DNA of 64,000 bases from a virus, in the UHGV virus genome UHGV-0076294. One strand, given 5' to 3'. The position numbers and the translations under genes are program-made. Below are positions 3,910-17,223 of this stretch, piece after piece. The notes under the pieces are model-generated. The model ran no database searches. It saw nothing but the letters and a program-made list of their open reading frames with translations, and was not told where the DNA came from. Each line of letters begins with the position of its first letter. Position 1 is the first letter of the stretch.

Positions 3910-3945
3910 ACCTACCTCCTTTACGGAGGTAGGTACTTTTTTTAT
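3910..3945. terminator. Bidirectional terminator between convergent operons
   Basis: acctacctcc-tttacg-gaggtaggt followed by actttttttatttt. Confidence 0.7.
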
Positions 3946-4616
3946 TTTATCCCCATTTCTAAAGCGTACGCTCGGATGGTATCATAATCACGCTGCTCGG
4001 CTAAAAGTCGAAGCTCTTTTTTCTGCTCGGTTTTCTGATTATGCAATTTCTGATCGCGTTTCACAATCGTTGCCATCAGTTCCTTACACTGCTCCAATGT
4101 GAACGGTTCCACTCGAGCGTTTGATGTGTCCAACCAGTAATCCGGTGCGGTTTCTGATTGGATATACTGACTTAACATCTGTCTTGACGTTGAGTCTGTT
4201 TGGAAATAACGTCCGTTTAATTCAATAGGCGCATAACGTTGCTCCTCATAAAGACGCTCCATCTCTATCATGATTTTCTGAACATCCTGATAGATATACC
4301 GCACCGTAGAACGAACGTTATTTCGTATTTCTTCTAAATCAATCTCAAGAACATCAGAGATAAATTCTTTCGCTTTCTGTAGCGTAAAATTAGCCTCAAT
4401 CTCTGACATATCATAACTGCGCATCTGTTCGATTGCGGCCTTATCTTCCAACCCTTCGATTAATTTGTAATGTAGAAGCGCACAAAAACCTGCACGGCCA
4501 CGATCCTCATTGCCAATTCGTTCCATGTAATTACCGTGCCGATCGATTGGAAGCCCTCGTGAGAAATAACGTTGGCGTATTTCCTCTTTCGTTAAGCTTT
4601 CGTCAATAACAGACAT
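3942..4616 (-). CDS. Hypothetical protein (last gene of radical SAM cluster operon)
   Basis: Long ORF, start overlaps upstream gene end; no recognisable motif. Confidence 0.5.
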   Translation of the reverse strand: MSVIDESLTKEEIRQRYFSRGLPIDRHGNYMERIGNEDRGRAGFCALLHYKLIEGLEDKAAIEQMRSYDMSEIEANFTLQKAKEFISDVLEIDLEEIRNNVRSTVRYIYQDVQKIMIEMERLYEEQRYAPIELNGRYFQTDSTSRQMLSQYIQSETAPDYWLDTSNARVEPFTLEQCKELMATIVKRDQKLHNQKTEQKKELRLLAEQRDYDTIRAYALEMGIK

Positions 4617-5164
4617 TCATCATCTCCTTTAACTAAACCCAGTTCAATTAACAATTCAAAATCGATTTGGCGAAATTTGTTATCAAAACCAGAATCCCAA
4701 TCGATATGTAACCCTTGTCGTTCTTCATCGGTAAGTTCAGGATAAATTAAACCAAGGAACGCTTCACGTTCTTCGTAAAATCCATCGATAGTAGAATCTG
4801 GATTTCGTGTTGCATAGATCGTAATGCCCGGAAAGGATAATCCTAATGCTGTTATAGATTCGACGCTCGGTTCTTGCAAGGCCCTGCGTAAAAGCACGAT
4901 TTTATGTCGTGGAAATTCTAGTACACGTTGTTCAAATCCAGGATTCCGTTTCTCAATTTCTGTAACTGAAAGATCGGTGAGTTCTGTGCAATACATTGGG
5001 ATAACTACGGTTACTCCGTGACGAATTAATAGTCGTTTAACATCGTCAGTGAAGTCTTCACCGTTAATTTGCACATAACAACCAAACAGTTTTGTGCTCT
5101 CTAAAAACTTTTCCAAAAAACGGAATTTACGCTTCGTAATATTGTGGATCAGAATTGGTTTCAT
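4592..5164 (-). CDS. Hypothetical protein (radical SAM cluster)
   Basis: ORF overlapping both neighbours (coupled translation); no recognisable motif. Confidence 0.5.
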   Translation of the reverse strand: MKPILIHNITKRKFRFLEKFLESTKLFGCYVQINGEDFTDDVKRLLIRHGVTVVIPMYCTELTDLSVTEIEKRNPGFEQRVLEFPRHKIVLLRRALQEPSVESITALGLSFPGITIYATRNPDSTIDGFYEEREAFLGLIYPELTDEERQGLHIDWDSGFDNKFRQIDFELLIELGLVKGDDECLLLTKA

Positions 5165-6449
5165 CTTTGGCTTCTCTCAATTGTTTTTCTTTCTGGGCAC
5201 GTTCACGTACGCAACGAGGGCAATAACACATGCTATTATCGTGAAAATCTTTCACTGACGTCGTGCCCATTTTCTGTTTCCAATATTCCGCAACCATCAA
5301 TTTTGCAGTTGTCCAGCCGCATTGACGGCGTTCGGCGTGATAAGCTTTGCGATCTTCTAGCGTCCCTTCTCCATTCTCGTAAGATGCAGCCGCACAACTA
5401 CCACAAGCGTGCTTCATTGGACAACCTAAACAGGTTTCAGGATAGTTGGTATATTGCGTCTGAATCTCTTCCAGCAATTTCCCGTCATCTAAGCTAACGA
5501 ATTCCCGGCCAACTAATTCAAATACGGCAGAACGTGATGTTACGGTTGACATGAAACGGTTACAACCGAAGATCTTACGATCGAATCCTAAGCAGGTCAT
5601 GTGTGTTAACGTACCGCAGAACGGACGTAAACGTTCTGGATTCAAACGTACAGTATCGTTATACAATAATTGGTCGCGCCAGTTTGGTTCCCAGATAGTA
5701 TCAAAATCTAACCCGTCTGGAATGATGTGCGACAAGGTGTTACGTGGGTTGGTGTGTAAGCCCTTCTCAACCCAATAATCAACCACATCCATCATCTGCA
5801 ATGCGATTGAAGTAGCCATGCTCCGTGGCATAATGTCTTCGAAGGTTACGTTGCCGGAAATAGTTCCACCGCCAGTAATATCAATTAATGATTTCATTCC
5901 AGCAGCATAGAACGGTAACGTTTCCAACGTAAAGGTCGCTTTTACACCAAGTTCTGCAATACCGACTTCTTTTAAGTAATTATAGCCCCGCACAGCGGCC
6001 TCGTAAGATCCTTCACGAGTTGTTGTAAAAATCCGGTACTTATCGTGCGATTCGGGCAATCCATCAATAGACACCCCAATAGAAAGCCTGTCTTTCCAAC
6101 GTTCAATAATTTCTCTATTCAAAGGTCTATCTAACAATGTTCCGTTAGTAGAAATGCTAAACATAAACGGCCGATTATGTTTTTCGCATAACTCTTCTGC
6201 GGTTTCAAATGCCGCCATTAATAACTTAGGCTGCATAAACGGCTCGCCGCCGATAATGTCGATAACGACCTCGATGTTTGTCAGGTCTTTATCCCTTTCG
6301 AAACAGGCATGTAAAAAATCAACGATATCTGCCGCTTTGTTATTCCGAGGATACTTACGTTCGTAACAATACTCACAGTCTAGGTTACACGATAAATTTG
6401 TAACGATCTGATAAGTCAGTTGTTTAGGATAACTATTTTCTTGACTCAT
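5127..6449 (-). CDS. Radical SAM enzyme with C-terminal SPASM/twitch-like Cys-rich domain
   Basis: CNLDCEYC (CxxxCxxC) near N-terminus, GGEP motif; C-terminal CGTLTHMTC...GC and CLGCPMKHACGSC cysteine clusters typical of SPASM auxiliary Fe-S domains. Confidence 0.8.
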   Translation of the reverse strand: MSQENSYPKQLTYQIVTNLSCNLDCEYCYERKYPRNNKAADIVDFLHACFERDKDLTNIEVVIDIIGGEPFMQPKLLMAAFETAEELCEKHNRPFMFSISTNGTLLDRPLNREIIERWKDRLSIGVSIDGLPESHDKYRIFTTTREGSYEAAVRGYNYLKEVGIAELGVKATFTLETLPFYAAGMKSLIDITGGGTISGNVTFEDIMPRSMATSIALQMMDVVDYWVEKGLHTNPRNTLSHIIPDGLDFDTIWEPNWRDQLLYNDTVRLNPERLRPFCGTLTHMTCLGFDRKIFGCNRFMSTVTSRSAVFELVGREFVSLDDGKLLEEIQTQYTNYPETCLGCPMKHACGSCAAASYENGEGTLEDRKAYHAERRQCGWTTAKLMVAEYWKQKMGTTSVKDFHDNSMCYCPRCVRERAQKEKQLREAKDETNSDPQYYEA

Positions 6450-7356
6450 TTTCCGCCCCTCTATTACGTTCTGCCATCACTACACGACGAATGTACTCGT
6501 AAGCTTCTACACCTATTGAGGAGGCTAGTTGGTTACACCCTGCTTTCGTAGCTATTGGTACATTTTTAAGTTGGTTTTCTTCCCCGTCCGCGTCTATCCT
6601 GAGACTTTCGCTACAGGCGTTACAAGCATGATCGAAGAATCTGTTTACAATAAAGCCGCAGTCTCTAGAATTTAGAACATTCAGTCTTTCTATATTCTCC
6701 TGAATTCTAAAATACCCGTAAATAAAGTTCATAACGTGATCGGGAGATAACGGTTTTGGCATGTTTTTGTCTAGTAATAAGGACATAGAACGAAAACCGT
6801 AATGGTAGATAGCAGTATATAATTGAATGATATCTTCATGCCATCTTTTATTGGATAAATTCTCCCTCGTAACAACAGCCCAAGTGTTAACATTATTCAA
6901 GCTGTAAATTACTTCTAACGCCTCATGGCAATTATCATCAATAAAGCGCTTAAAAGGCCGTTCAGAAAGATTAAACCCATCGATGCTAACATATATAGCA
7001 TCGAATTGTTTTAACAACGGTAGATGCGATTTACGCATTTTTAAACCGTTCGTGAACATTTGGTGTTTGAGTTCAGGACGGATCGTTTTTAATTCGTCAA
7101 CAAACGCCTCAATCTTTCGAGTTGCCAGTAGCGGTTCACCGCCAGTCCACTGAATTTCAGTAATGGTTGGGTTAGACGACAACGCTTTCAAAATTCGTTC
7201 ACGTTGAAACTCTCGCGGAGAATCTTCACGATGCATGTAATAGGCTCCGCCGCAGAAGCTACAGTCCAGATTACATTTGGATGTAGCAACTACGGACAAT
7301 ACGGTGGGTTTATTGTATAAACGATTCGATAACCTTGGCTCTACGTCGGTTGTCAT
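6433..7356 (-). CDS. Radical SAM enzyme (paralog of 9406-10320)
   Basis: CNLDCSFCGG (CxxxCxxC) and GGEPLL motifs; ATG at 7356 preferred (SD ggag) over 7371; 3' end overlaps start of SPASM gene. Confidence 0.8.
   Translation of the reverse strand: MTTDVEPRLSNRLYNKPTVLSVVATSKCNLDCSFCGGAYYMHREDSPREFQRERILKALSSNPTITEIQWTGGEPLLATRKIEAFVDELKTIRPELKHQMFTNGLKMRKSHLPLLKQFDAIYVSIDGFNLSERPFKRFIDDNCHEALEVIYSLNNVNTWAVVTRENLSNKRWHEDIIQLYTAIYHYGFRSMSLLLDKNMPKPLSPDHVMNFIYGYFRIQENIERLNVLNSRDCGFIVNRFFDHACNACSESLRIDADGEENQLKNVPIATKAGCNQLASSIGVEAYEYIRRVVMAERNRGAENESRK
6679..6773. repeat. 95-nt block identical to 9643-9737 (within paralogous radical SAM genes)
   Basis: Read directly; flanking coding sequence of the two paralogs is clearly diverged. 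Confidence 0.85.
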
Positions 7357-7377
7357 TGCAGGTGACTCCATCTATTT

Positions 7378-8265
7378 TTAAATATAGCCAATGGATAACA
7401 AAGGATCGTCGTAAGCGTTAACTCCGGGTTTTAATACAAATGGTGAATTGTAAGCCTCGATAATGCGATTAAGGTCCTTATAACGCACGTTTAAACGTTC
7501 TAAATCCGCCAACGTTACGTTACGTTCCAATACCGCCGACACTGCTGCTTTTTCTTCATCAGTTAACGTGACTTTCGTCATTAAGAAACTAACAAGTTTT
7601 GCTAAATCTGCTTCCGATGACGGGTGTTCACCAATACGTGTTTGAATTAAATGTTGCATCCACGGCTTACGAATACGTTTTGTGATTTCATGTTCATCTG
7701 TAAGGGCAACCCACACAGAGCGTTCGCGATCCCACACAAATTTATAACTGTACGCCATCAGATCGGCTAAGCAGTTGATGCCAAGCTCCTCGTAACCTTC
7801 TATTTCAATGTACGGTTCGGTATCAACATAGTTTTTTGTTTCTACAGGAACCAGTGCATAAAAGTACGGGAATGAACCGAGATAGTCTGGAGACCACCAA
7901 CGACGTGCTACAGGCTTCGCATTCAACTCTTTAAATGGCGTAAAGAACAATTCCAAATCTACAGAATTATTCAGAATACCGTCACTAAAGAAATATTTAC
8001 CGTCAACCAATTTACCGCGTAAATCTGAATCACCGGTAAACACCACTACGCTTTCTGCTGACAGATCGCGTATTTTAAAAGTGTTTTCTACTGAATAGTT
8101 ATTGCGATCGGTAAAAAAACGACCGCGCACTTTGGGCCATTCGCCAGGTAACTGAGTTAACAAACGAACTTTATCTTCCAAATGAGCGCGTATTGAATCG
8201 GGGGAAGAAATATGAAGTGGGTGGTTGAAAATTGTTTTATAGGCTAAATGCAAATCGTTTTTCAT
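7378..8265 (-). CDS. Hypothetical protein (radical SAM cluster)
   Basis: Long ORF between Cys-rich genes and radical SAM gene; no recognisable motif. Confidence 0.5.
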   Translation of the reverse strand: MKNDLHLAYKTIFNHPLHISSPDSIRAHLEDKVRLLTQLPGEWPKVRGRFFTDRNNYSVENTFKIRDLSAESVVVFTGDSDLRGKLVDGKYFFSDGILNNSVDLELFFTPFKELNAKPVARRWWSPDYLGSFPYFYALVPVETKNYVDTEPYIEIEGYEELGINCLADLMAYSYKFVWDRERSVWVALTDEHEITKRIRKPWMQHLIQTRIGEHPSSEADLAKLVSFLMTKVTLTDEEKAAVSAVLERNVTLADLERLNVRYKDLNRIIEAYNSPFVLKPGVNAYDDPLLSIGYI

Positions 8266-8277
8266 TGATTACTCCAA

Positions 8278-8757
8278 TTATTTTACGGTCAATCTGACGT
8301 TCAAGGTATAGAACCCGCCACGCCATTGCCTGCCGGTAACTTCAAATTCCGCAGTAAAGCCGTTTGATTTACTCGGTTGCTGCGTAATCGCCATGGTTCC
8401 GCCGGAATTACTTAATACTTCTAACGAGATAGAAACAGAAGATGCATTACCGATAGAGTCTATCTTAAAACTAGCCGCGTCTGTAAAATTGACACTGATA
8501 CCGTTACCCATCGCAACTTGTGGATAGGCGTAAGACTTGCCAGACAGTAACGATTTAAAGATCCTCATCGGTTTTTCTTTACCGGTTAATGTTGCGCATT
8601 GAATAAAGACGGTCCCAGTAGAGAAATTGATACGGACAACATCTTTAGCGTGTAGCTTAGACTCAACATAAACAACGGCTTTGTTATCGTAGGCGGGTCT
8701 TGATGGGGTTGGTGTGGAACCGCCGCCGGAGGGCTTACTTACCCCCCCCCCGCTCCC
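8278..8757 (-). CDS. Hypothetical protein; frame is open upstream of the first ATG (8568) up to the C10 tract, candidate frameshift fusion partner of the Cys-rich ORF 8739-8945
   Basis: ORF track gives 8278-8568; same frame has no stop from 8757 down to 8568 and no obvious SD before the ATG at 8568. Confidence 0.4.
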   Translation of the reverse strand, partial: GSGGGVSKPSGGGSTPTPSRPAYDNKAVVYVESKLHAKDVVRINFSTGTVFIQCATLTGKEKPMRIFKSLLSGKSYAYPQVAMGNGISVNFTDAASFKIDSIGNASSVSISLEVLSNSGGTMAITQQPSKSNGFTAEFEVTGRQWRGGFYTLNVRLTVK

Positions 8758-8945
8758 TTACTACAGCTACCGCTGCACGACCAACTACAACCACCGTTAC
8801 AATTATAATGACTTAAAGGTAACCCAGCTAGATTGTTGGTTGAAGAAACCGTCCCTTGGTTTGCAATATAGTTGTTTGCATTAGCGGTGGTGATATATCC
8901 CTCCGCTGTTACTAACCTGTCGCGTATGTTTTTAAGACTTATCAT
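8739..8945 (-). CDS. Cys-rich leader+core peptide C (short core, ends in poly-Gly encoded by C10 tract)
   Basis: Leader MISLKNIRDRL and junction HYNCNGGCSWSCSGSCS are paralogous to peptides A and B; start 3 nt after stop of peptide B. Confidence 0.55.
   Translation of the reverse strand: MISLKNIRDRLVTAEGYITTANANNYIANQGTVSSTNNLAGLPLSHYNCNGGCSWSCSGSCSKGAGGG
8742..8751 (-). repeat. C10 homopolymer (G10 on coding strand) at 3' end of Cys-rich ORF C
   Basis: Read directly; encodes the terminal GGG; a 1-nt frame change here joins an open downstream frame. Confidence 0.9.
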
Positions 8946-8948
8946 TTC

Positions 8949-9347
8949 TTATCTTCCAGTACACGATTGCTGACATCCGCCTCGACATGAACCCGAACAT
9001 GTTCCGGTGCAACTACTTGAACAACCACCCGAGCAGTTACCTGTGCACCCTCCTGAGCAGGTACTGCTACAACCTGTACAACCTGTACTACATCCTGAAA
9101 CACAGTTCGCTGAACAGGAAGAACCGCAGCCACCGGAGGCGTTGCCGGTGCAGCCGCCCGAACAACTTGAGCATGTCCAGCTACAGCTACCTCCGCAGTC
9201 ATAGTGAGTTCTCGGCTGTCCTCCAAACAGATCGCTATTATTAGTGGCTTTACCACGAATATAGTTCTGCACCGCACCAGTGTTTTTTAATGCAGTAGAG
9301 TCTATGTTATCCAGCCGGGCCTTTAAAGAAGATAAACCAATCGCCAT
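8949..9347 (-). CDS. Cys-rich leader+core peptide B (precursor-like; about 24 Cys at C-x3-C spacing)
   Basis: Leader about 45 aa then DCGGSCSWTCS followed by repeats such as CSGGCTGNCSGGCSSSC; SD aggt. Confidence 0.65.
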   Translation of the reverse strand: MAIGLSSLKARLDNIDSTALKNTGAVQNYIRGKATNNSDLFGGQPRTHYDCGGSCSWTCSSCSGGCTGNASGGCGSSCSANCVSGCSTGCTGCSSTCSGGCTGNCSGGCSSSCTGTCSGSCRGGCQQSCTGR

Positions 9348-9405
9348 TTTAATACCTACTGGTTTAGTGCCCCCTAGGACACATTATAATTCATTTTCTG
9401 TAAAA

Positions 9406-10320
9406 TTATCGTAGTTTTTCTGAGACTCTATTCTTAGCCCCTACCACACGACGTATATAGTCGTAAGCATCTAATCCAACCTTTCTGGCCAAGTCACTAC
9501 AACCATGCTGCGTTACGATTTCAACGTTCTTTACTTGGTTCTGGGCACCGTCAGACTCAATGCGAAAACAACGACTACACGTATTACAGGGTTCATCAAA
9601 TAACGCATTTAGCGTAAACGCACATTCACTTCGATTGGACGAATTCAGTCTTTCTATATTCTCCTGAATTCTAAAATACCCGTAAATAAAGTTCATAACG
9701 TGATCGGGAGATAACGGTTTTGGCATGTTTTTGTCTAAAACCAGCGACATCTCACAAAAACCATAATGGTAAATGTGGTTATGTAACGCAATTATATCTT
9801 CGTACCAACGTTTATCCCCAATACGCTCGCGTGTCAAGACCGCCCAAGTACGAATATTTTTCAATTCGTAAATTGTCTCCAAAACCTCGTATTGTTTTTC
9901 TTCGATAATCCTCATGAACGGACGCTCTGATTCTTTGAATCCATCCATGCTAAAAAAGATACTATCAAAACCCTTTAACAACGGTAGATGCGATTTACGC
10001 ATTTTTAAACCATTGGTATACAGGTAATGTTCGCAACGAGGATACTTCTCCCTTATCTCTTCTATAAGGGTATCAATTTTACGCGAGGCAAGTAATGGTT
10101 CGCCCCCTGACCATTGGATATTTGTGATAGTCGGGTTATTTTCCAGCGCCTCGATAATACTTTCCTTTTGTACTTCTGTGGTTGTATCCTCTCTATGCAT
10201 GTAATAGGCTCCGCCGCAGAAGCTACAGTCCAGATTACATTTGGACGTTGTAATCACGTTTAACGTTCTCGGATTACTGTAGAGCTTATCGGATACCGTC
10301 GGTCTAGTAAGTTCTTCCAT
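9406..10320 (-). CDS. Radical SAM enzyme (paralog of 6433-7356)
   Basis: CNLDCSFCGG motif; SD aagga; begins 19 nt after stop of peptide A. Confidence 0.8.
   Translation of the reverse strand: MEELTRPTVSDKLYSNPRTLNVITTSKCNLDCSFCGGAYYMHREDTTTEVQKESIIEALENNPTITNIQWSGGEPLLASRKIDTLIEEIREKYPRCEHYLYTNGLKMRKSHLPLLKGFDSIFFSMDGFKESERPFMRIIEEKQYEVLETIYELKNIRTWAVLTRERIGDKRWYEDIIALHNHIYHYGFCEMSLVLDKNMPKPLSPDHVMNFIYGYFRIQENIERLNSSNRSECAFTLNALFDEPCNTCSRCFRIESDGAQNQVKNVEIVTQHGCSDLARKVGLDAYDYIRRVVGAKNRVSEKLR
9643..9737. repeat. 95-nt block identical to 6679-6773
   Basis: Read directly. Confidence 0.85.
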
Positions 10321-10339
10321 TCGAACTGATCCTTATTTT

Positions 10340-10735
10340 TTATGGGTTAGAACAACCACCTGCACAAGAACCACTACACCCCGAGGAACAACGTCCAGCA
10401 CATCCCCCAGTACAAGTCCCACTACATCCTGAACAACCACCCGAACATGTTCCGGTGCAACCACTGCATTGATTACCACACGCAGAGGAACAGCTTCCTA
10501 CGCACACCGATGTACATGTACCTGAACAACTCGTACAACCATGCGTACAACCGTTTGAGCATGTCCAGCTACAGCTACCTCCGCAGTCTAATCGACCGGG
10601 TGTCCAACCTGAAAATGAATCAGCAGCATTATGTGCTTTCGACGCAACTTGCGGATCAACACGTGGCCCAGTTGCTATTCGGTTCTCTACGTTGGTGATT
10701 CGGTCACGTACGTTTTTAACACTGATCGCCATCAC
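10340..10735 (-). CDS. Cys-rich leader+core peptide A (precursor-like)
   Basis: Leader MMAISVKNVRDRITNVENRI..., junction RLDCGGSCSWTCS, core of C/G/S/T with C-x3-C periodicity; SD aaggat. Confidence 0.65.
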   Translation of the reverse strand: MMAISVKNVRDRITNVENRIATGPRVDPQVASKAHNAADSFSGWTPGRLDCGGSCSWTCSNGCTHGCTSCSGTCTSVCVGSCSSACGNQCSGCTGTCSGGCSGCSGTCTGGCAGRCSSGCSGSCAGGCSNP

Positions 10736-10799: not shown

Positions 10800-11999
10800 T
10801 TATTTCGTACCCGCTTCTGCTTGTACGTCATCACGAGACGTCAGGTTAGCGTTAACGTGCACTGGGGCCTGAACCACGCCACCGTATCTCTTGTGGAGAT
10901 AACCTGTATGTGGGTTATCTGCCGCAATGTGGTTTTGTAGGTTTTGGTTCGCCTGACTGATTGCGTTCGTGTTATTATTAACCTGCTGTTTAAGCGCATC
11001 CAGGTTTTGTTGTAACTGATCGATTTTCTGATCGGTTTCTTGGCCATGTTGCTCTAACGCTTCAACACGCTGAATAACCTGATTCAGTTTTGTATTTAAA
11101 TCGTTGACACTCTTTTGCAGTTGTAACACTAACGAGTTCAGGTTCGCTAACGCTAAAGCCATTTTCTGGTAGTTTTGAGCAACCACGTTAAGTTGGTCGT
11201 TCCACGCTTCCAGAGAGCTGACAACAGCGTCAATACGCTTACCTAAAGCTTCATCTGCTTTCTTCAGTGCATTGATTTCCGTAATCGTTGCGTCGATAGC
11301 AGACTGGACGTCACGAATAAGCGCACGGATTTCAGTTTCTGTTAGTCCATTAACCTGATGGATATCAAGTTGGTGGACGTTACCGGTTGCATTGATGTGC
11401 GCATTTAAAGCGTCCAAGAAGTCGTTTTTCAGACTTTCCAGAATCGCTTTAATGTTCTCTAACTGTACCGCATCGCCAGAACTGATCGCGTCCTTAATGC
11501 CCGCCAATACAGCGATGATATATTCAAAGCCATAAATGTCACCTACGTCTTTATACGTCGGCGCTGACGGGAATGTATCTGGTACGTTACGTAAGTCTTT
11601 AAATGCAACTGTACGGTTATCGAGGTTTAGCTCAGCAATCGCTTGTTCGATAGCCACGATGTTTGCAGACTGTGGGCCACCAACTACCTGCGCAGATACC
11701 GTAATGTCTGTCGGAATCGCTGTGTTAGTGACCACAACCGCCATGACAATCTCGCGGTTTTTAGTCAGCTTTTCATAAGCCGGGTGTGCAAAAATCAACT
11801 CATAATCGGTACCACGTTCGTAGGTTGCATCCGGTCGGTTAGCAACGCGCAAACGAAACGTGTCCGCAAAGAACGGGCCGTCAGGAAAAGCAAAAGCACG
11901 GTTTACTTTACCTGTACCTAACGTAACCTGACGCTCCACAGCGTTAGACGTTAGCGAGCCTGTTAAATCTAAAGGATATTGGTAAACAATGGAGGCCAT
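10800..11999 (-). CDS. Tail fibre-like protein with coiled-coil region
   Basis: N-terminal module shared with the three large downstream proteins (PDGPFFADTFRL...GTDYEL); long Q/N/L-rich heptad-like segment; ATG at 11999 preferred over GTG at 12005. Confidence 0.5.
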   Translation of the reverse strand: MASIVYQYPLDLTGSLTSNAVERQVTLGTGKVNRAFAFPDGPFFADTFRLRVANRPDATYERGTDYELIFAHPAYEKLTKNREIVMAVVVTNTAIPTDITVSAQVVGGPQSANIVAIEQAIAELNLDNRTVAFKDLRNVPDTFPSAPTYKDVGDIYGFEYIIAVLAGIKDAISSGDAVQLENIKAILESLKNDFLDALNAHINATGNVHQLDIHQVNGLTETEIRALIRDVQSAIDATITEINALKKADEALGKRIDAVVSSLEAWNDQLNVVAQNYQKMALALANLNSLVLQLQKSVNDLNTKLNQVIQRVEALEQHGQETDQKIDQLQQNLDALKQQVNNNTNAISQANQNLQNHIAADNPHTGYLHKRYGGVVQAPVHVNANLTSRDDVQAEAGTK

Positions 12000-12039
12000 G
12001 GCCACTCTCCTTTATTCGAGACGTCCTTGTCCCGAGTCA

Positions 12040-15000
12040 TTAAGATGTAAACATAAGATTGAACTGGAGTTTGTCGATATCTCGAGTTTCAGCCGGATTC
12101 AACGCATCGAACGTAGTTGCCACATAAACCGTTAGCGTACCATCATCATACGAAGATTTCACCGGCGGATTAGTTCCAGTCTGACCATCTCTCACAACGA
12201 GTGCAGGCTCGCTGGGAAGATTATCAAACTGCCCTTTAACCGCTTTGTATACCAAACCGGACTGTGCAGATAACTCCGTGTCTGTGTACACACAGAACGG
12301 TGTATCGATGTCAGCTTGTTTGATAGTGGTACCGGATTCGACATCAATCAACTGTACTGCTCCAAACTTCGTGCGATAACTTTCATATTCGTTCTTCGGA
12401 ATAACAAAAGTAACGTGAACACGAACTTCTTCAGCGGGCTTAAAGCCAGTATGTTCTTTTTCCAAATACTGATTGGCTGATAGCGTCACTTTTTGTTCGG
12501 CCATCGAACCACCTGCCTGATTTATTCCGTACCGGGCTTCAACAATACCGGTTGGTGCAGCAAGTCGCAATTTCAGAGTTCGATTCGCCGTTCCTGGATT
12601 ACCTGGCACTTGAACGCGCAAACTCAATGCTAAGTAAGCATACGTTCCGGTAGTCGGTTTCGTATACGCACCTATCCATTTCATGTTCGCAGACGCTGCC
12701 TGCGAGTTCTCAGAAGCAGTAGCTGTCGCAATGTTAGCAGCTACCGCTTTCTGCCAGAATTGGTCGGCGCAGTTCTCATACGCTACTCTGGCCACGCTCT
12801 TATAACCCGAATACGTTTCCTGGATTGGTATCTTAGGACGCGTCGTGATGCCAGACAATGAACCCCATTTCTGGCCGTCAACATACCCTTCGCCCTTCGA
12901 CGCAGACGCCGTAGGTGCTTTAACGGGCTTGTTAATCAGTGTTAATAGAGGACCCGTCTTTCTGTCGAACGCTGCCGCTACATCGTGTTGGTCGATAATT
13001 GCTGCGTGGTCTTCCAGCTCTTTCACACGACCCAAGCGTTTTACTTTGTCGATACTGATATCAGTAATACGGCTGGAATCGGTGGTTACTGTCCCAACGA
13101 ACAGTCTTGTTGAAGTATCGGCTAACTGCTCCAAACCGATGCGGTATTGCGCGGTAGAACCCGACACCTCAGCGTGCACGTAGAACGTCTGGTTAGCGTG
13201 ATTGGACGGGAACTCGCTGCTTAAATCCACAGACCACGTTGGGAGTGTATAGCTGCTACTACCGAAATCTAACTTGACTTCTTCAGTCAGATACAGAATC
13301 CAACCTTCCGCTGTTTCCACACCGGCGATGATAACAGCCTGACCTCCGGTTGAGAAGGTCGTGTCGTTAACAAACTCTGCGGCTGTATACGCGTTACCTG
13401 AGCAGAAAACGCGGTCAGCTTTAGAGAAAATCAACGCCATCTTGTCCCAGTTACCCGCACCCATATAGCACCCAGATTCTGGGTTATGTGCAGGAGCCAT
13501 CTGTCGTAACTGCGACTTACCAGGAACGCGAGACCAACCTGAACCTGGGTCGTAGGTATACTTCGCGGCGTAACCTAGTGCGTTTAAGTCCCCGATATTT
13601 CGGATAGTTAACGTATAAGGTAGCCAGATACCGAAGTTAGTTCCATCCGCAGAAGCGAAAATAGGCTGTCCGACGCGACGGGTCTTATTACCAGCCTCCT
13701 CTCTTAACGACTGATAACTTAAACCGTAATCTTTATCCAGGAACCAATCCACCAACTTAAAGGTAGCTGAGTTGAACCGTAAGTAGCCATTCTCTTTAGA
13801 TGGACTCACCATGAAGTAATAGATATCAAGAATTCGACGTCCGTTACTTAAGGTTTTCATGCACGAAACTTGCAACAAGTCAAACTCGCACACGGTATTG
13901 ATACCCAACATCCAAAGAGCAAACAAGGCATTACCGGTTTGATGTGCAGCACTAATACGCTCGTTTGCGTATCCGTTCGCTTCACCAGAAGGCGCACCGT
14001 CAACGATCATCTGAATCATTTTCTGACGATCGGTTTCTTCTAACGTTAAGCGTTCAGAAGACAACGCAAAGTTACCGTAGATGTTACGATACGGGAACGT
14101 TTCTGCTTTGGTCAAATACCAACCATTTAATTGACCGTGACGTTCTTCAGGGATCATGCACGCCGCCATACAGCTAAGCTGTTCGTAAAGCGTTGCATCG
14201 ACTTCACGACGGTTGTTATTCGGTCCGTAGCCACTGTAACCCGGAACGTCGTAAGGTTTATTCGGATCAACTTCCACTTCGATGGTATAACGGTTACGTG
14301 GGTTTGACAACCACACCTTATTCGAACCACCAATTCCGACAGGATGAGAAAGACCGATGGTATAAATAGAACCACGACCTTTATCCCAGGTAAACGTTCC
14401 TTCGCCTGAGGTATTGTTTGGGTTATCGTAACGCAGATAATCGAAAAGCTCTTTGCCTTGCGTTCCTTTAATAGAAACGTTAGGCATCTGGTCTGCATCG
14501 TTAATCTGCCAACAGGAAAGCATCATTCCCGTACCGTTGGGTTTAGCATACGTCGCGAAACAACGATTGTTTGCTTGACCACCGCCCCACTTACGGCTGG
14601 TTTCTACAGTTGAACCATCCGCGAAAGAGAGTGTAGTAGCATCAGCCTTGATGGGGAAGCGTTCGCGGCCTTCTAACGTAACCTTGCCCGTCGACGTATC
14701 GATTGTAAAACTTGTTGCCCATTGACGAAAGTTAATTTGTGAGCTGTCAGCCGCTGCAAACCACACAGTAGGCATATGGTTCACACGAATCACGCCGTCG
14801 CGCACTGCACAAGCATGGTTACATTCTGGACCGTGAACAAAGTTGCAACCAATTGTCCATTTAGCCCGTGCTTCCGGCGTCAAATACGTAAAGAACTGAC
14901 CCGTTTGTGACTCTTCGGTTTTCTGGCCAATGCGTAGGCAGAGGTTATCTCCAAATTGTCCCATCTCCCCGTTTAGTGTTACGCGTTCAAACTCCAGCGT

Positions 15001-17223
15001 GGTGCTAGTAGACAAATCGTCCTTACGTAGACGCCAAGCTGCTACTGCGTAAGCAGAGTTATTTACCGTAGAGCGGAGAAGATAAACGTAATCCTCAACC
15101 AACACAACATCATCGGCTTCTGGCCACGGATTCCAGGTTTGTTCCACAGTACCGCTGGGGTTGCCGTTACGGTACACGGGCATCGTAACGCGACATACCA
15201 CCGTGTGTTTAGTGTGATCCATCGAACCATTAAACAACACCAAATAACGGTTATTATCAGAACCCAGACAAATAATCGCTTCCTGACCACCGATCAATAT
15301 AGCTTTCAGGGTCACTTCAGGATATTTACTCATCCCGGCAGGGTGATATTTCACTGAGGTCTGCTGCGGATTTACAAACGCGTTTGACGTGTTAATGTCA
15401 GCATAGCCGTAATAAATGGCTTCTGTACCCGGTACGCCGTTAGAACCGTTACGGAGCGAATAAACCTTACCCTGCTGATACCCAACAACCCCTTTTTGAT
15501 AAGACTGGTTTTTGGTATAACCCGAATAGTTACCTAGCGCTGGGATAGGTAAGAAGTTCTTGTTACCGAACTTCGCACCACCTACCGTCCACGCCGGTAA
15601 GATGGTATTCAGTTTATCAGAGACTTTCTTAATCTCTTTTGCGAACAGCCACCCTTGACGCGACGTGACAGCTTTATCGTTAGTAGTGTCAATCGCATCC
15701 CAGAGCTGCAAGATGCCGTCAACCGTTGCACTACCAATTGGAATGTTAACCAAGTCAGCAGTGGTGTGTGTATGCGTCTTCAAACTCTTGTTTTTCAACA
15801 CGTTCGTTAACGCTTTCGTCACCGGCTTAGCACTTGGCGTGGTGTTATCCATCTTATCGATACCGAAATCGGTTTTCGTTAAGGTTAACACCATACTGTC
15901 GCCTACCTTAACAAACCCTTTACCGTTAACGGTATAGTCATCGTCAACGTACAGGTCCAAGCGGTCTTTTAATTCGGTTACGGCTTTCTGGGAGATAGCA
16001 GTACCTAACGCCGCAGACGTGGAGATATTCGTAATCGAGAACAACCCATAAACTGATTCGGTCGCTGTGGGAATATTCGCGTTTAACGTAACCGGGTTAG
16101 TCTGTTTTGCGGTACCGTACGGTTTTACAGTGTCTGACGCTTTGAAATACGCGTTTGCTTCGAGCAACGTTACTGACGTCAGGTACATGTTCACCATTTC
16201 TGGCGTAACCAGATACACGGAGTTATAAACTGGCGCTAATACATCCTGTTCTGACCCCGAGTGAACCCAAAGCGTATTCAGACCCGCACTGAATTCAACC
16301 GCTAAACCCGATTCGTTGTTGTCCTGGTCTGCTTTAATCACCAACGGTTGTGGCGAGGTAATTAACCACTTATCACCACGAATACTGATGATGTGGCCAC
16401 CTGACGTTTTAAACGTTAATTCATTACTGTTCGTGGTACCCCATCGACCGTAAACGGTGCCGAGGGCTTCACCCATTAACTGGTCAACGTCCGATTGCTC
16501 AATACCCGCTGAACCCATCAGCGTAGCCAACTCGTCAATCGTCAACCCAAACGCTTTTGTAGCGTCAACAGCACGTCCTAATACGGGAAGAGCAGCAATG
16601 TCATCAGTGGTATAATGATGCGCGTTAGGGTTACGGTGATGCTGGTATAATTCTTCGTCGAAAACCTTTTTCCCGTTCTCGTAAATCAGGTTAGTGACTT
16701 CACTGAACGCAGCATCTAACTCCGTAGAACGCTTAATGATTTTCTTGCGAATGTCTTCTAACGCCTTAACAACCTCATCCCTCAGAATCGCTTCTTCTAA
16801 GTTAGCAGGCGGGTCGATAGGCTGAATAACCGGCGCATACGCCATTAGTTCAGACCAGTCCACGTTACGTGGGTCTTTCAGGTCAGTACGAACTAAGAAC
16901 TTCCCGATTTCAGATTGCGGTACACGATATTGACGTGCTACCCCTAAAATCTCATATTCGATTTCTGTTGCAGTAAGCAACATAAACCCGCCGTAAATCT
17001 GATCTTGTTCAGCTTCTGCGAGTTCTTTAAAGTAATAGCCTAAATAGTAGTCCAACCCCTCAATCAGAGTACGACGTCCGTTAGGCGCGGTATCGTCGGC
17101 TACTGTGAGTTTTAATCCGATACGATAAAAAGGTCCTTCAGGTGGAATGACCACGTTAAATCGGTTAGGGTACGTTGCTGTGCTTAGCGTACCGTTAAAC
17201 TGCGCCGCGTCTTCTCTCGGCAT
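12040..17223 (-). CDS. Large structural protein, tail fibre/spike candidate (1727 aa)
   Basis: SD aggagtc; N-terminal module IPPEGPFYRIGLKL...GLDYYL resembles tail-fibre attachment domains; G/S/T/N-rich beta-like composition. Confidence 0.5.
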   Translation of the reverse strand: MPREDAAQFNGTLSTATYPNRFNVVIPPEGPFYRIGLKLTVADDTAPNGRRTLIEGLDYYLGYYFKELAEAEQDQIYGGFMLLTATEIEYEILGVARQYRVPQSEIGKFLVRTDLKDPRNVDWSELMAYAPVIQPIDPPANLEEAILRDEVVKALEDIRKKIIKRSTELDAAFSEVTNLIYENGKKVFDEELYQHHRNPNAHHYTTDDIAALPVLGRAVDATKAFGLTIDELATLMGSAGIEQSDVDQLMGEALGTVYGRWGTTNSNELTFKTSGGHIISIRGDKWLITSPQPLVIKADQDNNESGLAVEFSAGLNTLWVHSGSEQDVLAPVYNSVYLVTPEMVNMYLTSVTLLEANAYFKASDTVKPYGTAKQTNPVTLNANIPTATESVYGLFSITNISTSAALGTAISQKAVTELKDRLDLYVDDDYTVNGKGFVKVGDSMVLTLTKTDFGIDKMDNTTPSAKPVTKALTNVLKNKSLKTHTHTTADLVNIPIGSATVDGILQLWDAIDTTNDKAVTSRQGWLFAKEIKKVSDKLNTILPAWTVGGAKFGNKNFLPIPALGNYSGYTKNQSYQKGVVGYQQGKVYSLRNGSNGVPGTEAIYYGYADINTSNAFVNPQQTSVKYHPAGMSKYPEVTLKAILIGGQEAIICLGSDNNRYLVLFNGSMDHTKHTVVCRVTMPVYRNGNPSGTVEQTWNPWPEADDVVLVEDYVYLLRSTVNNSAYAVAAWRLRKDDLSTSTTLEFERVTLNGEMGQFGDNLCLRIGQKTEESQTGQFFTYLTPEARAKWTIGCNFVHGPECNHACAVRDGVIRVNHMPTVWFAAADSSQINFRQWATSFTIDTSTGKVTLEGRERFPIKADATTLSFADGSTVETSRKWGGGQANNRCFATYAKPNGTGMMLSCWQINDADQMPNVSIKGTQGKELFDYLRYDNPNNTSGEGTFTWDKGRGSIYTIGLSHPVGIGGSNKVWLSNPRNRYTIEVEVDPNKPYDVPGYSGYGPNNNRREVDATLYEQLSCMAACMIPEERHGQLNGWYLTKAETFPYRNIYGNFALSSERLTLEETDRQKMIQMIVDGAPSGEANGYANERISAAHQTGNALFALWMLGINTVCEFDLLQVSCMKTLSNGRRILDIYYFMVSPSKENGYLRFNSATFKLVDWFLDKDYGLSYQSLREEAGNKTRRVGQPIFASADGTNFGIWLPYTLTIRNIGDLNALGYAAKYTYDPGSGWSRVPGKSQLRQMAPAHNPESGCYMGAGNWDKMALIFSKADRVFCSGNAYTAAEFVNDTTFSTGGQAVIIAGVETAEGWILYLTEEVKLDFGSSSYTLPTWSVDLSSEFPSNHANQTFYVHAEVSGSTAQYRIGLEQLADTSTRLFVGTVTTDSSRITDISIDKVKRLGRVKELEDHAAIIDQHDVAAAFDRKTGPLLTLINKPVKAPTASASKGEGYVDGQKWGSLSGITTRPKIPIQETYSGYKSVARVAYENCADQFWQKAVAANIATATASENSQAASANMKWIGAYTKPTTGTYAYLALSLRVQVPGNPGTANRTLKLRLAAPTGIVEARYGINQAGGSMAEQKVTLSANQYLEKEHTGFKPAEEVRVHVTFVIPKNEYESYRTKFGAVQLIDVESGTTIKQADIDTPFCVYTDTELSAQSGLVYKAVKGQFDNLPSEPALVVRDGQTGTNPPVKSSYDDGTLTVYVATTFDALNPAETRDIDKLQFNLMFTS

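Follow-up and report, generated by a model that had tools for sequence, protein, structure and literature searches.

Radical S-adenosylmethionine (SAM) enzymes that act as peptide maturases are known for small secreted natural products. The described systems closest to the locus presented here are the CXXX-repeat systems, on which the paper of Haft and Basu from 2011 is said to be the original one. They combine a target protein (TIGR04114; PF27846), its paralogs (TIGR04117) and a maturase (TIGR04115), and they share with our locus a Cys at every fourth residue, small spacers and a neighboring SPASM enzyme. Bona fide TIGR04115 systems are also present on viral contigs beside CXXX proteins. In the SCIFF system (thermocellin), the substrate of the enzyme CteB is rich in Cys, and the thioether that this enzyme forms leads to a Thr. 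The SPASM enzyme QhpD installs several intramolecular Cys thioether bridges in QhpC, the gamma subunit of quinohemoprotein amine dehydrogenase, a protein that stays in its assembly. Low-complexity repeat modules made of small residues are known from the distal ends of phage fibers, namely the His-x-His iron sites of T4 gp37 and the polyglycine-II domain of S16 gp38. PapB generates the six Cys-X3-Asp thioether rings of the ranthipeptide freyrasin. The partner to which it links Cys is reported to be the Asp beta-carbon or a different residue with a carboxylate (PMC12373016). The subject of the present study is a gene cluster on the minus strand of a 64,000-nucleotide stretch of the viral genome UHGV-0076294 (the window). 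It encodes three Cys-rich proteins of the A-, B- and C-type (A68, B132 and C131), a long and two short radical SAM enzymes and an accessory protein. On balance, we lean towards the reading that the Cys ladder of these proteins is a fiber-tip domain cross-linked by the radical SAM enzymes, probably via thioethers.

The core of B132 includes CSGGCTGNCSGGCSSSCTGTCSGSCRGGC and that of C131 includes CSGCTGTCSGGCSGCSGTCTGGCAGRCSSGCSGSC, which contains C-x2-C steps. Among the 19 Cys spacings of B132, 16 are of four residues, two of three and one of eight, C131 has 17 spacings of four and three of three (n = 20), and all three spacings of A68 are of four. Shuffling of the core residues gave approximately 2.1 spacings of four on average and 9-10 at maximum, and none of 200,000 shuffles reached 16 or 17. 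The first-pass annotation had called the C-x3-C periodicity strict. It is dominant, but spacings of three and eight occur as well. The spacing of eight in B132 corresponds to a slot with Ala in place of Cys, which is kept in all orthologs, and if this slot is counted, the ladders of B132 and C131 both have 21 slots. Besides it, only spacings of four or three exist in the two proteins and there is no C-C or C-x-C. Since Tandem Repeats Finder detected no 12-nt array between positions 8600 and 10800, the period is maintained at the protein level and not inherited from a recent DNA duplication. A recent 12-nt tandem repeat in the DNA was therefore rejected as the source of the periodicity.

C131 consists of a helical N-terminal segment of approximately 50 amino acids, the junction LDCGGSCSWTCS and the following CXXX and CXX units. 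The open reading frame (ORF) listing starts it with the GTG at 10735, but the ATG at 10732, with AAGGA located 8 nt upstream, is the likelier start. The corresponding junction of B132 is HYDCGGSCSWTCS. A68 shares the N-terminal segment and the junction HYNCNGGCSWSCSGSCS with the two other proteins, has no long ladder and ends inside a run of ten G (G10). The pattern Y/L-D/N-C-x3-C-S-W-S/T-C is invariant in all three junctions. Cys accounts for 24-26% of the core residues. Across the related proteins, the first spacer position is Ser or Thr in 71% of the units, the second is Gly in 55% and the third is Gly, Ser or Thr in 87%, which bears out the initial impression that the spacers are small residues. 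The additional claim that aromatic and charged positions are missing from the cores is nearly right, since the only charged or imidazole residues are two Arg in B132 (one in CRGGC, one terminal) and one His and one Arg in C131. Asp and Glu are entirely absent from the cores of B132 and C131, and Asp occupies approximately 1% of the spacer positions in the closer relatives (tier 1, see below).

Codon alignments indicate that A68, B132 and C131 are real, translated paralogs under purifying selection. The orthologous trio was taken from the phages SEGD1, STsAS, pEa_SNUABM_29, phiEaH2, Asesino and pSal-SNUABM-04, so that three genera (Seoulvirus, Erskinevirus and Machinavirus) are covered. In the Cys frame, the ratio of nonsynonymous to synonymous differences (pN/pS) is 0.20 for the A-type, 0.24 for the C-type and 0.26 for the B-type, at a pS of approximately 0.75-0.8, i.e. 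with synonymous differences near saturation. In all other frames the pN/pS is above 1.5, the one exception being codon-antisense, a frame that always imitates the coding one. The Cys columns are invariant in the A-type (4/4), in the B-type (20/20 in seven phages) and in the C-type (21/21 in six phages). CXXX units are shortened to CXX at differing places in different phages, and despite these varying unit lengths the Cys counts stay fixed across the three genera, at 20 in B and 21 in C. A clear Shine-Dalgarno sequence (AAGGA) precedes the gene of C131 and the adjacent one of a short radical SAM enzyme (9406-10320), and the B- and A-type genes possess only weak motifs of this kind.

In the deposited genomes of SEGD1 (L001), SPN3US (L003), pEa_SNUABM_29 (L009) and phiEaH2 (L010), the Cys genes are left out or mis-annotated, and annotations in a wrong frame or in antisense lie over them (SPN3US_0166, SEGD1_169/170, pEaSNUABM29_00267/268). 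The earlier explanation that the low-complexity coding sequence causes spurious overlapping ORFs is correct, and it is precisely such frames that several GenBank records annotate. Because of the wrong frames, the published virion proteomics of SPN3US could not have detected the three proteins. In SEGD1, a frameshift in the C-type gene (L001 8925-9316) splits the N-terminal segment from the Cys core, and the gene is intact in SPN3US and STsAS; the frameshift possibly goes back to an error in sequencing or to an inactivation of the gene in this strain.

B132 (22.3 bits) and, marginally, C131 (20.1 bits) exceed the cutoff of TIGR04114 (tSAM_targ_Cxxx; 20 bits), and A68 does not match this model. 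All three proteins match phrog_6085 ("unknown function"), with E-values of 6e-40 for C131, 3e-39 for B132 and 8e-25 for A68. A Pfam search of the three proteins, with a model set that did not include PF27846 (tSAM_targ_Cxxx_rpt), matched no family, and precomputed matches to PF27846 exist for the relatives P0004, P0005 and P0012. The gene of a SPASM radical SAM enzyme (5127-6449) is located in the same minus-strand cluster. Judged from these sequence matches, the Cys proteins of the window are the phage form of the CXXX-repeat class of radical SAM targets. Curated models of this class exist already, so that the observation taken by itself is not novel. In the literature, our coverage of which is incomplete so that prior publication is possible, we found no description of the tail-fiber context, of a variant in four parts that includes an accessory protein and a second radical SAM enzyme, of phage fibers as substrates of radical SAM enzymes or of any chemistry of the class.

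The long enzyme carries the radical SAM motif CX3CX2C in the sequence CNLDCEYC at residues 21-28 (C21, C25 and C28). Seven further Cys (C278, C296, C340, C343, C349, C352 and C377) are invariant in 19 diverse homologs, down to 31% identity, and represent a SPASM signature. With the radical SAM motif beginning at residue 21, there is no N-terminal domain of the recognition element type (RRE) known from peptides that are made by the ribosome and modified after translation (RiPPs). The best NCBIfam match is TIGR04115 (118 bits, cutoff 350), followed closely by the ranthipeptide maturase PapB (114 bits, cutoff 340). The SCIFF maturase model yields 58.8 bits (cutoff 425) and the QhpD family 57.5 bits. 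The distance to the TIGR04115 cutoff suggests that the long enzyme belongs to a sister clade. CteB (5wgg) is the sole sequence match in the PDB (E-value 1e-11; residues 19-180 of the query against 105-266 of CteB). Generic similarity of the radical SAM enzymes to anSME and to cyclophane-forming families is also found among the NCBIfam matches.

The two short enzymes are paralogs with 63% identity, each with a CX3CX2C motif and conserved C-terminal Cys residues at 245 and 274. In the copy at 9406-10320, the motif is located at residues 28-35, and this copy matches Pfam Radical_SAM with 53.5 bits as well as phrog_1802. SPN3US-like phages possess a gene for a "putative radical SAM superfamily protein 2", to which the gene at 6433-7371 has approximately 70% nt identity. 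An extra copy of the short enzyme is present at the same place in the IMG/VR relatives L016 and L017, and only one copy exists in SPN3US, in the Erwinia phages and in L015. The accessory protein received no assignment to a family or function. It was modeled confidently by AlphaFold (predicted local distance difference test, pLDDT, of 86), yet no structural relative was detected in the PDB or in BFVD. A role of the cluster in defense or anti-defense was considered and dropped, as PADLOC revealed only the generic similarity of the radical SAM core to viperins.

The association of ladder and enzymes was analyzed in 80 IMG/VR loci that were retrieved with a profile of the long enzyme and scanned by a pipeline of ORF prediction and hidden Markov models (HMMs). 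Tier 1 comprises loci in which the long enzyme scores at least 390 bits (the window and L001-L029, including repeated fetches of the same phage regions). Here, an accessory homolog and a CXXX ORF were found in 29/29 loci and a short radical SAM enzyme in all loci but L027. The CXXX stretches of the ORFs listed by the scan end 4-13 residues before the C-terminus. Towards TIGR04115, the tier 1 relatives score 144-155 bits. In L029 (IMG/VR contig 3300028886_000034), the short and the long enzyme are fused in one ORF of 686 amino acids (7131-9191), which adjoins the accessory homolog and a tail-fiber-like protein of 451 amino acids ending in a Cys ladder; such a fusion is a classic sign of joint action. 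In tier 2 (L030-L103; long enzyme 180-230 bits), three of the four sampled enzymes are bona fide members of TIGR04115 (434-521 bits) and the fourth falls just short of it (290 bits). A CXXX ORF with 14-126 Cys is located nearby in 66 of the 74 loci, at least some of which are tail or lysis neighborhoods, and our ORF and HMM scan detected neither a short enzyme nor an accessory protein there. Enzymes related to TIGR04115 are common on viral contigs. The tier 2 CXXX proteins (L030-L103, P0185-P0190) possess a different conserved N-terminal domain and the junction …SSGC…C-S/T-G-L-C.

Loci from bacterial genomes, obtained by a search with the radical SAM profile A4 and mostly containing unrelated SPASM enzymes, served as a negative control. 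A CXXX ORF lies near 10 of the 11 enzymes with at least 170 bits, against 5 of the 69 other SPASM enzymes. A search with the alignment of the Cys proteins confirmed 9 of 58 pattern matches, a small number that is probably due to the poor handling of low-complexity sequences by tblastn. When 1.84 billion representative proteins were searched with a profile, 422 clusters with an E-value of 0.001 or lower were obtained. Some of these are fusions with fiber domains (tail collar fiber, tail fiber PHROGs), and there are also giant proteins of 1,500-1,800 amino acids, whose C-terminal third or so consists of approximately 150-160 consecutive CXXX units. The co-occurrence in these scans shows that the Cys proteins of the window's type are specifically linked to one clade of SPASM radical SAM enzymes, to a short radical SAM enzyme and to an accessory protein.

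The evidence for a function in the tail comes from homologs in other phages. Homologs of B132 of approximately 210 amino acids have a tail-fiber-like N-terminal half (match to phrog_5073) and a C-terminal half composed of the pre-ladder segment (…NA..L.G....Y-Y/H-D/R-C..GCSWTC…) and the ladder. In T7-like podophages (L005-L007), the Cys-ladder gene directly follows the gene of the fiber N-terminus (Phage_T7_tail) and is itself followed, in the two loci that are long enough, by genes for a short radical SAM enzyme, a protein of 242 amino acids and a long radical SAM enzyme. Two prophages were reached by searching from the long enzyme. In the P2-like prophage of Campylobacter pinnipediorum (L013), a Phage_tail_fib protein of 384 amino acids ends in GCNGCSGSCSGSCSSGCTACSGCSGSCSG, and its gene is succeeded by those of a 250-aa protein and of a long and a short radical SAM enzyme. 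In the lambda-like prophage of Deferribacter abyssi (L014), a fiber protein of 302 amino acids encoded downstream of GpJ carries KATNADQLGGQAGSYYRCSDCSWTCS and then 29 Cys, and the accessory-type and the long and short radical SAM partner genes follow as in the Campylobacter prophage. In a more distant jumbo-phage contig (L004), a trio of two long and one short Cys protein recurs together with two radical SAM enzymes and the accessory protein. An HMM built from the accessory proteins of the jumbo phages alone recognizes the partner of 240-300 amino acids in all these lineages (E-values of 1e-43 to 3e-5). Fiber annotations of proteins with junction and ladder comprise Phage_tail_fib (L013), phrog_910, phrog_5073 and tail-fiber PHROGs (P0288). 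These alignments and annotations indicate that a homologous ladder is the C-terminal end of fiber proteins in several phage lineages.

The genomic position in the window is consistent with this. The Cys genes adjoin homologs of the SPN3US virion proteins gp167 and gp168 and are located between virion fiber genes and non-virion maturation genes. SPN3US gp168 is a tail protein that resembles phiKZ gp131 at the baseplate periphery (PMC5105663). The virion proteome of SPN3US lists gp160 and gp167-171 and none of gp161-166 (PMC5694885, supplement), so that neither the radical SAM enzymes nor the accessory protein occur in the virions, which is what one would expect of maturation factors.

AlphaFold modeling of B132 (alignment of 21 sequences, mean pLDDT 47.8) predicted helices at residues 5-33 and neither a fold nor strands for the core (pLDDT 31-48), a negative result of limited weight as an unmodified monomer was modeled. 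Together with the TIGR04114 match and the co-occurrence with one SPASM clade, this accords with the initial idea of a cross-linked rather than globular scaffold, and the metal-coordinating variant of that idea found no support. We propose the following course of events. In the infected cell, the long SPASM enzyme with two auxiliary Fe-S clusters would act on the ladder, together with the short radical SAM enzyme (two copies here) and the 295-aa non-virion accessory protein. Most likely, hydrogen atoms would be abstracted from spacer residues and the Cys sulfurs joined there as thioether bridges, which would yield a covalently stapled rod or knob. Unlike disulfides, which cannot arise in the reducing cytoplasm, such cross-links can be introduced there, and they would be stable outside the cell. 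The mature ladder would then be the distal element of a tail-fiber-type appendage. In SPN3US-like jumbo phages, three separate small proteins would have arisen from it, and their genes lie between the fiber and the maturation genes.

Among the three structural options raised by the first-pass annotation (a ladder of thioethers, a metallothionein-like cluster and a beta-solenoid), the first fits best. The nearest enzyme families are TIGR04115 and PapB and the structural match is CteB, and this kinship suggests that the Cys thiols are probably turned into thioether bridges. As the cores lack Asp and Glu, the acceptors would have to be Ser, Thr or Gly. A stapled fiber tip is suggested since disulfides cannot form in the cytoplasm, where virions are assembled. 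Several points weigh against the proposed fiber tip. The long enzyme scores far below the TIGR04115 cutoff, so that a transfer of function is weak, and the characterized relatives PapB and QhpD need the Asp or Glu acceptors that are missing here. To our knowledge, no CXXX-repeat system has been experimentally characterized, and the literature (with the limits mentioned above) gave no account of CXXX-repeat chemistry. The three proteins of the window keep only the pre-ladder segment of approximately 50 amino acids without a recognizable fiber-attachment domain, and this segment could equally be a RiPP-style leader. They would be virion components that the SPN3US proteomics, having searched mis-annotated ORFs, was unable to register. 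Finally, our proposal assigns no specific role to the short radical SAM enzyme type or to the accessory protein.

The alternative that survives best, although we regard it as rather improbable, is that the radical SAM enzymes modify the ladder by some other chemistry and that the product is not a thioether ladder. Examples are the conversion of Cys to formylglycine or dehydroalanine, epimerization, a Trp cyclophane at the CSW junction or inter-chain links. The enzymes lie below every curated equivalog cutoff, the acceptor problem just described applies here as a supporting argument, and the presence of two radical SAM types and an accessory protein suggests more than one reaction. Moreover, all proteins of alignment A2 share the junction Trp without exception, and the generic similarity to anSME and cyclophane families is a further argument. 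However, Cys-thioether formers dominate the relatives (TIGR04115, PapB, CteB), the strict conservation of every Cys fits Cys as the reactive donor, and the formylglycine motif C-x-P/A-x-R is absent.

It is unlikely that a free RiPP (a toxin, a signal or an anti-competitor peptide) is made from the three small proteins, whose leader of approximately 50 amino acids would be cleaved and whose product would be no part of the virion. Proteins with bona fide fiber domains in podo-, sipho- and P2-like phages end in the same segment, junction and ladder, the genes are always located in tail modules, and lytic jumbo phages of three genera keep the exact Cys counts. Furthermore, no protease or exporter was recognized among the screened genes of the cluster. 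The idea draws on the layout, because a conserved N-terminal segment and a Cys core of hypervariable length beside SPASM enzymes are classic for RiPPs, and it would also account for the missing fiber-attachment domain and for the non-virion nature of the radical SAM enzymes and the accessory protein.

Slightly less probable still is a metal-thiolate scaffold with free thiols, either metallothionein-like or an Fe-S or Zn chain, for instance one that follows the axis of a trimer, as the His-Fe sites do in the T4 gp37 needle. A core with 24-26% Cys, small spacers only and no predicted fold of its own would be suited to it, and metal-stabilized fiber shafts are known from other phages. However, no metallothionein family of Pfam was matched and the period of four is unlike the C-x-C and C-C motifs, neither of which occurs; the metallothionein-like option of the first-pass annotation is not supported. 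A metal scaffold also leaves the co-occurrence with the SPASM clade, the short-long fusion and the accessory protein unexplained. The regular Cys repeats with Thr, Ser and Gly also bring to mind an unmodified, disulfide-laddered beta-solenoid of the beetle antifreeze type that folds after release from the cell (a beta-solenoid was likewise raised at first). This is highly improbable, since AlphaFold predicted no strands or solenoid (with the limitation given above), a period of four is too short for a solenoid turn, the CXXX to CXX indels vary between orthologs while the Cys count stays fixed, and dedicated enzymes would be ignored.

Beyond the favored reading of a cross-linked fiber tip, we tentatively put forward a wider one, in which we have less confidence. 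In four or more unrelated lineages (jumbo myoviruses of the SPN3US type, T7-like podoviruses, P2-like myoviruses and lambda-like siphoviruses), the fibers might end in a Cys ladder cross-linked by a dedicated pair of radical SAM enzymes with an accessory protein, the jumbo phages might have split this ladder into three co-assembling proteins, and the bacterial CXXX-repeat systems may largely be fiber modules of phages or prophages. The equal 21-slot ladders of B132 and C131 and the conserved trio invite the speculation that these proteins co-assemble, perhaps side by side.

If our proposal is true, the chemistry of radical SAM peptide maturases would extend to structural proteins of viruses, and it would become apparent how a virus can introduce covalent cross-links despite the reducing conditions of the cytoplasm. 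An abundant class (422 clusters in the 1.84 billion proteins, some with approximately 150 units) would gain a function, too. A virion structural element built by RiPP-style radical chemistry has no described precedent that we could find in the incompletely covered literature. Since an amber-mutant genetic system and published virion proteomics exist for SPN3US, the question is directly testable. Moreover, Cys genes that are missing or annotated in a wrong frame in deposited jumbo-phage genomes are hidden from proteomics and from the prediction of receptor-binding proteins in phage therapy work.

The features of the cluster, all on the minus strand, are compiled in Table 1. The surroundings of the Cys genes share approximately 70% nt identity with the SPN3US/SEGD1 group (Seoulvirus) of Salmonella, Escherichia and Proteus phages. 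The genomes of these phages measure approximately 240 kb, and their gene order is collinear with this region of the window. The gene of the long radical SAM enzyme is followed on the same strand by genes for a DUF4376 protein (224 amino acids; 3942-4616) and for a protein of 190 amino acids without family match, and both are conserved in SPN3US-like phages.

Table 1. Genes and ORFs of the Cys-ladder cluster, listed from the fiber genes towards the maturation genes
Feature	Coordinates	Strand	Basis and remarks
1727-aa tail or baseplate-fiber protein, SPN3US gp168 homolog	12040..17223	-	length and position match SPN3US_0168; marks the tail-fiber neighborhood
401-aa coiled-coil virion structural protein, SPN3US gp167 homolog	10800..12005	-	phrog_2163, E 3e-104; immediately upstream of the C-type gene
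C-type Cys-ladder protein C131	10340..10732	-	130 aa from ATG 10732, 21 Cys
Short radical SAM enzyme, second copy, 304 aa	9406..10320	-	between the C-type and B-type genes
B-type Cys-ladder protein B132	8949..9347	-	132 aa, 20 Cys and one Ala-substituted slot
A-type paralog A68	8739..8945	-	68 aa, 4 Cys
96-aa ORF	8278..8568	-	reached by the -1 frame open from the G10 run
Accessory protein, 295 aa, SPN3US gp165 homolog	7378..8265	-	phrog_8030
Short radical SAM enzyme, first copy, 312 aa, SPN3US gp164 homolog	6433..7371	-	Pfam Radical_SAM 48.7 bits
Long radical SAM/SPASM enzyme, 440 aa, SPN3US gp163 homolog	5127..6449	-	NCBIfam and PDB sequence matches

The end of the A-type gene deserves a separate remark. 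The A68 reading frame stops directly after …KGAGGG within the G10 run at 8742-8751, and the -1 frame is open from this run through the 96-aa ORF to 8278. A -1 shift or an eleventh G in the run would result in a conceptual A-long protein of 222 amino acids. This fusion aligns over its full length with P0019 (220 amino acids), which is fused in frame in contig L104 (E-value 7e-42). The geometry is kept in relatives, with a G6 run, an extension shortened by a deletion and an open -1 frame in L025; L015 and L024 have stops in the -1 frame after the A gene. The run may reflect slippage that is programmed or phase-variable, an error in sequencing the homopolymer or the decaying relic of a C-terminal domain.

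Overall, there are both parallels and clear differences between the locus in the window and the described systems. Compared with the CXXX-repeat systems, the variant described here adds the short radical SAM enzyme and the 295-aa accessory protein, most of its members possess the CSW junction, and its ladder is located at the extreme C-terminus of tail-fiber proteins. PapB and freyrasin resemble it in the repeated four-residue Cys motif and in a SPASM enzyme without N-terminal RRE extension. However, the cores of the window have no Asp or Glu, the long enzyme reaches only about a third of the PapB cutoff (114 of 340 bits), and freyrasin is a small free peptide and not a fiber domain. CteB shares the Cys-rich type of substrate, and among solved structures it alone was found to be similar in sequence to the long enzyme. 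However, the N-terminal RRE domain of CteB (approximately 100 amino acids, PqqD-like) is absent from the phage enzyme, and the SCIFF peptide shows six Cys within 45 residues and no period of four. The tips of T4 gp37 and S16 gp38 fold without enzymatic cross-linking and without a Cys ladder. QhpD and QhpC provide a precedent for a subunit that is modified and retained in an assembly, although they differ from the locus in the window by their Asp and Glu acceptors, the lack of repeats and the lack of any link to phages.

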